From NCBI RefSeq assembly GCF_003334815.1, contig NZ_QOWO01000052.1: a stretch of DNA of 22,598 bases; one strand, written 5' to 3'. This DNA is from Escherichia coli (GTDB lineage Bacteria; Pseudomonadota; Gammaproteobacteria; Enterobacterales; Enterobacteriaceae). Below, one piece after another: positions 968 to 1,717 of the stretch (position 1 is its first letter; every line of letters starts with the position of its first letter). Below the pieces are notes generated by a model. It was not told the DNA's origin. It searched no databases and saw only the letters and a program-made list of their open reading frames with translations. A program made the position numbers and the translations under genes.

Positions 968-1266
968 ACATGGTTTTCCTCATGGTTACATCGAACAAAG
1001 CGTTAGAAAGCGATTCAGGGCTTCTCAGTGAAAGATCCAAAAAGGATCAATCAACGGATCGTATGATCTGAACTCTTCTGGTTTTGAGAAAGGAGACACC
1101 GCTCGCCGCAGCCGAACGACCGAGCGTAGCGAGTTAGTGAGCGAGGAAGCGGAACAGCACAGGGATAACATCAGGCAATTACGCGCAGTGGTTAAAAAGC
1201 GAGCATATTGTTTTTATGTGTGGTTATCTTGGTTCAGAGTGATCTGTCCTCTGGGTTTACGCAAAG

Positions 1267-1275
1267 TTATCCACA
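1267..1275 (+). promoter_or_regulatory. DnaA box (TTATCCACA), origin-proximal
   Basis: Exact consensus 9-mer ttatccaca, inside a duplicated 16-mer gcaaagttatccacag. Confidence 0.75.
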
Positions 1276-1305
1276 GGTAGTGTGAATTTTTTGTTTTGAG
1301 CAAAG

Positions 1306-1314
1306 TTATCCACA
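1306..1314 (+). promoter_or_regulatory. DnaA box (TTATCCACA), second copy
   Basis: Second exact ttatccaca 39 bp downstream of the first, in the second copy of gcaaagttatccacag. Confidence 0.75.
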
Positions 1315-1356
1315 GATTTTTTGTGTTTTTTTGCTTATTAAACTTCTTGTTTTTAA

Positions 1357-1393
1357 GATCTTAAATGTAGATCGGTAGATCTACTTTAAGATC
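1357..1393. promoter_or_regulatory. Cluster of four GATC (Dam) sites in AT-rich origin DNA
   Basis: GATC at 1357, 1370, 1378 and 1390 within 37 bp (aagatcttaaatgtagatcggtagatctactttaagatc); such clusters are typical of P1 oriR/RepFIB-type iteron origins. Confidence 0.65.
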
Positions 1394-1487
1394 TTTAACT
1401 TACTCTAACTTATTCTGCAAACATTGTGCCAGTTTTTTTATCAATAATTTCATTAAGATAGGTGTTGTTTTTTGTCGCCTCAAAATG

Positions 1488-1717
1488 AAAGGTGGATGGG
1501 TACGCACTGAAAGGTGGATGGGTACGCATTTTTCTGTTTTTATTCAGATATTCGTATCTTTGTATCTTCATTTCTTTAGTTCTTTATAGTGCTCTAATCT
1601 AACGTATGACGTTAAAAGGTGGATACCTGCGCATTTCTATCATATTGAATATAAATGATAAAAATTCTTTCATGTGATCCGTGTTTTGGTGGAAACATAT
1701 AAGGTGGATAAACCACT
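1488..1717 (+). repeat. Iteron array (four ~19-bp direct repeats, core AAGGTGGAT) of the origin
   Basis: aaaggtggatgggtacgca at 1488-1506 and 1510-1528 (22-bp register), aaaggtggatacctgcgca at 1615-1633, ataaggtggataaaccac at ~1699-1717; directly upstream of the Rep_3 gene. Confidence 0.8.

Follow-up and report, generated by a model that had tools for sequence, protein, structure and literature searches.

Positions 1261–1780 of a 22,598-nucleotide stretch of Escherichia coli DNA (contig NZ_QOWO01000052.1 of assembly GCF_003334815.1; this whole stretch is hereafter called the window) are very probably the gamma-type vegetative origin of a pOLA52-type IncX1 plasmid, which belongs to the R6K/pi family and would use an R6K-like mechanism. 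A first-pass annotation had read the same region as a complete origin of the P1/RepFIB style. Segment 1100–3500 is 99.8–100% identical to many PLSDB plasmids typed as IncX1 (the types are the MOB-suite calls in PLSDB), and the IncX1 archetype pOLA52 carries the same origin. The IncX backbone order stbDE, origin, pir, bis, ddp3 is found in the window as it is in its relatives and in pOLA52. As had been proposed, a rep gene follows the iterons: it starts at 1781 and encodes the 279-amino-acid protein Pir, whose closest relative of solved structure is the R6K pi protein (PDB 2NRA, E 3e-52 over residues 3–265). Pir carries the Pfam domains Rep3_N (8e-19) and Rep3_C (3e-5) and is 99.3% identical to the initiator allele of pOLA52. 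The nearest relative of the whole window is pISHS7_3 (83% coverage, 97.8% identity), which is typed as IncX1 only; a full-length match was found neither in PLSDB nor among complete E. coli genomes. For comparison, we used the origins of IncX2 (L017, with an iteron array identical to the R6K gamma-ori query), IncX3 (L012) and IncX4 (L013), two further loci (L009 and L011) and the diverged IncX1-like record CP088568 (L008). At the level of sequence comparison, replicon identity, origin anatomy, the conservation of the origin parts and a deletion in the iteron array are read directly, unlike the mechanism, which is proposed by homology with R6K ori-gamma.

The class of element had been recognized correctly. 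The region forms an iteron origin in which DnaA boxes on the outer side, an AT-rich stretch bearing GATC sites and phased initiator sites precede a rep gene (Table 1), and all motifs first annotated are present above chance and within 0–2 bp of where they had been placed. The core AAGGTGGAT occurs exactly four times in the window, at 1489, 1511, 1616 and 1701, always on the plus strand. These sites had been taken for four iterons; all four cores lie within 1–2 bp of the expected positions, but the full repeat is the 22-mer TGAAAGGTGGATGGGTACGCAc, of which only the tandem copies at 1486 and 1508 are perfect, while the copy at 1613 is 76% identical and the site at 1701 has just the 9–10 bp core in common with the iterons. 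A 19-mer iteron core gives two matches versus 0.01 expected. The window contains no further iteron at up to three mismatches in 19, and neither AAGGTGGAT nor the 19-mer occurs outside 1488–1709. The core spacings of 22, 105 and 85 bp amount to 2.1, 10.0 and 8.1 helical turns, so that all four cores lie on the same face of the helix, and the phasing proposed earlier stands. The uneven spacing had been attributed to intervening sites, for instance for integration host factor (IHF), or to a promoter embedded in the array. A promoter and other sites do account for it, yet there is no significant IHF consensus and the promoter is located beyond the tandem array; the spacing follows from the general IncX plan, in which a gap separates the tandem array from a lone iteron and inverted half-iterons are placed at pir. 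The lone iteron stands at -165 from the pir start in 13 out of 13 pOLA52-type origins checked, and in both IncX1 and IncX3 it follows the last tandem iteron at 105 bp. In the spacer between them, no binding site could be assigned.

Closer to pir, TTTACA-18-TATGAT is the sole good promoter match, situated 190 bp past the tandem array and adjoining the fourth core. An inverted pair of cores (1701–1708 and 1727–1734) brackets its -35 hexamer (1717–1722), and the site at 1701 would be one arm of a putative operator for pir autorepression. In CP088568, the -35 region CCACTTTACATA is invariant, the operator cores are conserved too and perfect 10-bp inverted arms are present at the operator position; inverted half-iterons occur at the same place in IncX2, IncX4 and L009. 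A DnaA-box-like site with eight out of nine matches recurs at -78 to -75 in all IncX1-type loci, CP088568 among them, and is a candidate for the DnaA site on the right. R6K ori-gamma has likewise been described as bounded by DnaA sites (PMC5043065).

On the left-hand side, the duplicated DnaA box within a 16-mer was also correctly noted. Two exact copies of TTATCCACA are embedded in two copies of GCAAAGTTATCCACAG, which itself belongs to a 37-nt direct repeat with a 39-bp spacing. The whole window has four exact boxes versus 0.18 expected, and at least four were reached in 0 out of 100 shuffles. The other two (19447–19455 and 21328–21336, - strand) are far from the origin and fall in a region that matches the S6-family (SPATE) peptidase gene of pISHS7_3. 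The block around box 1 is 86–95% conserved across the IncX subgroups (1200–1290). The left side of the other subgroups examined has a single box, and box 2 derives from a 39-bp duplication specific to IncX1. Box 2 is 100% conserved in CP088568, compared to 58% for the adjoining spacer. Between the boxes and the iterons, the stretch 1317–1485 has an AT content of 70–80% and 40-bp stacking energies of -44 to -47 kcal/mol versus a window mean of -51.7 kcal/mol. It is among the least stable parts of the window and takes the position of the AT-rich segment in R6K-type origins; this low stability fits the role of an unwinding element. In CP088568, the DnaA boxes (92–100%), the GATC block within this stretch (93%) and the T-rich run (90%) are far better conserved than the neighbouring spacers (17–58%), and these three parts are therefore under selection.

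The origin extends left of 1261, to approximately 1034. This part includes a 60-bp ColE1-like segment that is present at 90–98% identity in more than 5000 PLSDB plasmids, mostly mobilizable plasmids of 2.5–6 kb. It is also found in IncX3 and IncX4 and is absent from the IncX2 locus. It probably serves as a signal for primosome assembly (n'-pas/ssi) at the flank of the origin. It does not form a stable hairpin, as its single-stranded fold is no better than that of shuffles. By eye, a motif resembling this segment can also be made out upstream of the RepFIB origin.

A common plan emerges from the comparison within IncX. In CP088568, L009, IncX3, IncX4 and IncX2, a DnaA box and an AT-rich segment are followed by six to seven 22-bp iterons in tandem and, after a gap, by one lone iteron, with inverted half-iterons immediately before pir; L011 follows the plan only up to the tandem array. 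The closest relatives (pOLA52, pMO17_54, pISHS7_3 and pTHO-010-5) are approximately 98–100% identical to the window in the origin: the DnaA-box duplication, the GATC block and the iteron sequence recur in them, the lone iteron stands at -165 and the operator core at -80, and promoter and Pir are the same. Like the window, pMO17_54 and pTHO-010-5 combine exactly two tandem iterons with two rep genes, whereas pOLA52 and pISHS7_3 have five tandem iterons and pOLA52 lacks the second Rep_3 gene, repX2. R6K ori-gamma (IncX2) resembles the window in its homologous initiator, in the order of parts through pir and bis and in a GTACG motif in the 3' half of the iterons. It differs in that its left side has one TTGTCCACA box, its array comprises seven tandem iterons and its AT-rich segment is free of GATC, three GATC sites lying to the right of iteron 7. 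The IncX3, IncX4 and R485-like origins have in common with the window the upstream GATC cluster, the ColE1-like segment, the block of DnaA box 1 and the layout, but differ in their iteron sequences, in Pir (35–40% identical), in having a single DnaA box and no more than one GATC in the AT-rich segment, and in a DnaA-like box immediately right of the array. Among the subgroups examined, the duplicated DnaA box and the four-GATC palindrome are thus specific to IncX1: the others have one left box, and their AT-rich segment contains one GATC at most. Three further loci surfaced in this comparison. L007 (MW940622), a seeming IncX1 origin with a Pir only 45% identical, was set aside as a frameshifted, low-quality assembly. 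L010 (Shigella flexneri plasmid NZ_CP020343, 2476–2720) holds a relic IncX3/R485-like gamma origin that insertion sequences seem to have cut, leaving the DnaA-box block, the AT-rich segment and approximately two iterons; its 90-bp block matches 147 Shigella plasmid records. In L014 (pHNBF16, NZ_MK079571, 600–1420), 12–13 tandem 53-bp repeats precede a pi-like rep gene whose product is 40% identical to Pir, and neither a DnaA box nor a GATC occurs within 800 bp, so that its design is unlike that of the other IncX loci.

Pir is the likely cognate initiator of the 22-bp iterons. pOLA52 has the same iterons with pir alone, from which it follows that repX2 is dispensable for this type of origin. 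The Pir of CP088568 shows 75% identity, and a change in the 3' half of the iteron goes along with this divergence. The RepX2 protein is 28% identical to Pir (2NRA match at E 6e-20) and has an additional N-terminal domain of approximately 55 amino acids with weak matches to MazE/AbrB (E 0.25) and phrog_4324 (E 1e-5). No iteron set of its own was found in 600–4500.

Relative to a typical IncX1 origin, the iteron array of the window has an exact 77-bp gap, which leaves two tandem iterons. There are five in pOLA52 and pISHS7_3 and six in other relatives, while arrays of four and one are also met. A junction-spanning query of the iteron region returned 717 PLSDB records, of which 17, including pMO17_54, have the exact two-iteron form; around 18 have a single tandem iteron. 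The allele is already in print, as a 77-bp deletion in the repX iterons of pMO17_54 was published in 2012 (PMC3402527); the paper states that one iteron remains, whereas the record shows two. Plasmids with the short form carry either Pir allele and may have or lack the second rep gene. The presence of this form with both alleles indicates that the deletion is probably recurrent, through recombination between repeats.

By analogy with R6K, for which the requirements for pi, DnaA and IHF, the flanking DnaA sites and the roles of monomers and dimers have been reviewed (PMC5043065, PMC4980987), the origin most likely works as follows. Pir monomers would bind the 22-bp iterons at 1486–1529 and 1613 on one face of the helix, and host DnaA would bind the boxes at 1267 and 1306 and perhaps the box with eight out of nine matches at 1703. 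Together, Pir and DnaA would open the AT-rich stretch 1317–1485, where the helicase would be loaded. Pir dimers on the inverted half-iterons at 1701–1734, which straddle the pir -35 element, would repress pir, and the number of iterons would set copy number and incompatibility via titration and handcuffing. In the least secure step, the four-GATC palindrome in the unwinding region would confer a post-replication sensitivity to Dam and SeqA, as in P1 oriR and oriC. The 77 bp would have been lost by recombination between iterons, leaving two of the five tandem copies, and the origin probably still fires.

Several points weigh against this R6K-like reading, including some on the GATC block and the shortened array that are given below with the alternatives they favour. 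We found no experiment on an IncX1 origin in the literature searched, so that Pir binding, unwinding and autoregulation are carried over from R6K. The DNA of the IncX1 origin hardly aligns with that of the IncX2 origin (best E 0.005 over 20 bp), and their homology lies in protein, gene order and layout. Moreover, R6K needs IHF, while the origin in the window contains no exact IHF consensus; one-mismatch sites number three versus 1.4 expected, which does not exceed the background, and they are not conserved in CP088568.

The GATC block had been noted for its four GATC sites in 37 bp, and these are indeed present, starting at 1357, 1370, 1378 and 1390. At least four GATC in 37 bp were seen anywhere in only 2 out of 300 dinucleotide shuffles of the window, and GATC is under-represented in the window as a whole (59 sites versus ~78 expected). 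The 41-bp palindrome that these sites form, the second GATC cluster at 1034–1065 and the deletion in the tandem array had not been noted. The IncX3, IncX4 and L009 origins have a counterpart of that upstream cluster in the corresponding place; a further cluster (846–885, three sites in 40 bp) lies left of the origin. The block itself is 93% conserved in CP088568 against approximately 50% for its flanks, and it is intact in 12 out of 13 pOLA52-type origins examined. Clusters of GATC in the unwinding region beside DnaA boxes are the pattern of oriC and P1 oriR, where they are the sites of Dam and SeqA action. By this analogy, control by Dam methylation and SeqA through the four-GATC block is plausible. 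We tentatively consider that, within IncX, only the pOLA52-type IncX1 plasmids have rebuilt the unwinding region, thereby converging on the Dam/SeqA timing of P1 and oriC, unlike R6K. An equally tentative alternative is that the block is kept as a 41-bp palindrome, whether to form a cruciform or hairpin signal or to bind a dimeric protein, and that its GATC sites are by-products of AGATCT motifs without any Dam/SeqA switch. The predicted hairpin is strong (-14.8 kcal/mol, z -7.0, about -7 on both strands, with 0 out of 200 shuffles as good), and it is the entire 42-bp block that is conserved, beyond the GATC tetramers alone. Additionally, the R6K-type origin bears tandem AGATCT motifs on the opposite side of its iterons, and IncX3, IncX4 and L009 have one or zero GATC at the equivalent place. 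Yet, the arms are invariant, so that compensatory changes provide no test of pairing, and both the clustering of GATC beside DnaA boxes and its depletion elsewhere in the window speak for the tetramer itself.

Less likely, the origin in the window is a crippled relic, the plasmid being kept either by the second Rep_3 protein, acting at another site, or by a replicon that lies beyond the window. In R6K, changes to the iteron sequence abolish pi binding and replication (McEachern 1985, cited in PMC4980987), and a two-iteron array may likewise be impaired; the authors of PMC3402527 termed the replicon 'substantially truncated'. Large plasmids host most of the short-form and all of the listed one-iteron copies, the five out of five that are typed having another replicon or a defective pir, and one of the one-iteron copies has also lost a GATC site. 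The plasmid of the window is itself absent from the databases searched, and its replicons are visible only within the window. On the other hand, the DnaA boxes, the GATC block, the lone iteron, the operator, the promoter and the full-length pir are intact and identical to those of working relatives, the nearest of which is of the IncX1 type only, and the second Rep protein has no iterons to act on in 600–4500. A single record supports replication of the short form: pTHO-010-5 is a complete 27.5-kb circle of type IncX1 only, with the short array and with pir and repX2 as its sole annotated initiators, and suggests that a two-iteron origin is still functional. Such an origin may perhaps have an altered copy number or incompatibility. 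A second candidate, pWP8-S17-ESBL-05_3 (L019, NZ_AP022218, 1057–1900; 53 kb, IncX1 only, short array), was rejected as evidence of a working short origin due to a 32-bp frameshifting deletion in its pir. Either this assembly is wrong or the plasmid has another mode of replication.

The P1/RepFIB family, finally, was assigned on a resemblance of design. In the annotated P1 oriR, adjacent DnaA boxes and five Dam sites are followed by five 19-bp iterons with the repA promoter, repA and nine incA iterons, and RepFIB of pUM146 has the same plan, including the downstream iteron cluster. The window has in common with these origins only the order of the first four parts (DnaA boxes, GATC cluster, phased iterons, rep gene), together with a putative iteron-linked autoregulation of the rep gene as in P1. 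Its two DnaA boxes are 39 bp apart rather than adjacent. At the position equivalent to the five aGATCc heptamers of P1, it has four GATC as a palindrome of AGATCT-type motifs, and its repeats are 22-mers with the promoter outside the tandem array, against 19-bp iterons approximately 21 bp apart with the repA promoter inside. The design was also called complete, but no second iteron cluster follows the rep gene, and hence there is no incA equivalent. In the alignment to the P1 oriR and RepFIB (pUM146) origins that had been suggested as a check, only the 9-bp DnaA box matches. BLASTP found no similarity of Pir to P1 RepA (E 1.9) or RepFIB RepA (E 1.2), while P1 RepA retrieves RepFIB proteins at 46–56% identity. 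P1 RepA does give weak Rep3_N and Rep3_C matches, and the idea that it belongs to a Pfam family other than Rep_3 was therefore rejected. Both proteins would thus fall in one broad class of winged-helix iteron initiators, a likeness of design and not of family. An origin of the P1/RepFIB type, with a P1-family RepA on 19-bp-type iterons, Dam-dependent initiation, SeqA sequestration and P1-style control, is therefore highly improbable despite the same order of parts and the distant Rep3 kinship, given an initiator homologous to R6K pi and close relatives that are all typed as IncX1.

Table 1. Features of the replicon region, in window coordinates (strand given where assigned).
Feature	Position	Strand	Remarks
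stbDE toxin-antitoxin pair	101–623	-	left of origin
Upstream cluster of four GATC (1034, 1045, 1057, 1065)	1034–1068		left of the interval of the first-pass annotation
ColE1-like conserved segment GCTCGCCGCAGCCGAACGACCGAGCG...GAGCGAGGAAGCGGAA, ending in GAGGAAGCGGAA	1098–1158
DnaA box 1, exact TTATCCACA	1267–1275	+	within exact 16-mer GCAAAGTTATCCACAG at 1261–1276
DnaA box 2, exact TTATCCACA	1306–1314	+	within exact 16-mer GCAAAGTTATCCACAG at 1300–1315
AT-rich, T-skewed stretch	1317–1485		between DnaA boxes and iterons; candidate DNA unwinding element
GATC block TAAGATCTTAAATGTAGATCGGTAGATCTACTTTAAGATCTT	1354–1395		four Dam sites in a 41-bp imperfect palindrome
Two tandem 22-bp iterons	1486–1529	+	what a 77-bp deletion has left of a 5-copy array
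Spacer, 83 bp, T-tract-rich	1530–1612		between tandem array and lone iteron
Lone iteron (76% copy)	1613–1634	+	counterpart of the eighth iteron of R6K
Putative pir operator	1687–1734		degenerate core TGGTGGAA at 1687–1694; core AAGGTGGA at 1701–1708; inverted core TCCGCCTT at 1727–1734
DnaA-box-like site TTATCCACC, 8/9 matches	1703–1711	-	overlaps the fourth core
pir promoter candidate	1717–1746	+	-35 TTTACA at 1717–1722, 18-bp spacer, -10 TATGAT at 1741–1746; 10/12 matches
Likely ribosome-binding site of pir, AGGT	1772–1775
pir/repX, pi-type Rep_3 initiator, 279 amino acids	1781–2620	+
repX2, second pi-like Rep_3 paralogue	2641–3483	+	directly after pir
bis homologue, 148 amino acids	3487–3933	+	position and size match bis of pECTm80 (PMC3332091); same order in pOLA52

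Beyond the rep genes and bis, a long inverted repeat near ddp3 (3985–4035) fits the beta/oriT region described for pECTm80 (PMC3332091). Between stbDE and the origin, a 42-nt direct repeat (737–778 and 926–967) occurs in two copies that are 83% identical and 189 bp apart, each of them a short hairpin with a T-run that resembles a terminator on the plus strand; these copies have no match in Rfam, nor has window 1–4500 as a whole a credible one. Past the IncX1 backbone, the cargo in 8500–22598 comprises a fimbrial chaperone-usher pair, insertion sequence elements and a SPATE autotransporter protease.

The IncX1 origin in the window is thus of a known and widespread kind, and it leaves the current understanding of iteron origins unchanged. 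For replicon typing, the consequence is that the plasmid is IncX1 and neither IncF nor P1-like, and a correct call of the origin also aids the reading of the second pi-like gene beside pir. IncX1 plasmids are common vehicles of resistance and virulence genes in Enterobacteriaceae, and the window has fimbrial and SPATE protease genes as well. The IncX1-specific GATC palindrome may couple replication to Dam methylation. Variants in iteron number may change copy number or incompatibility and, if this reading of the origin is true, the natural alleles with one, two, four, five and six iterons would form a ready series for relating the number of iterons to both properties.

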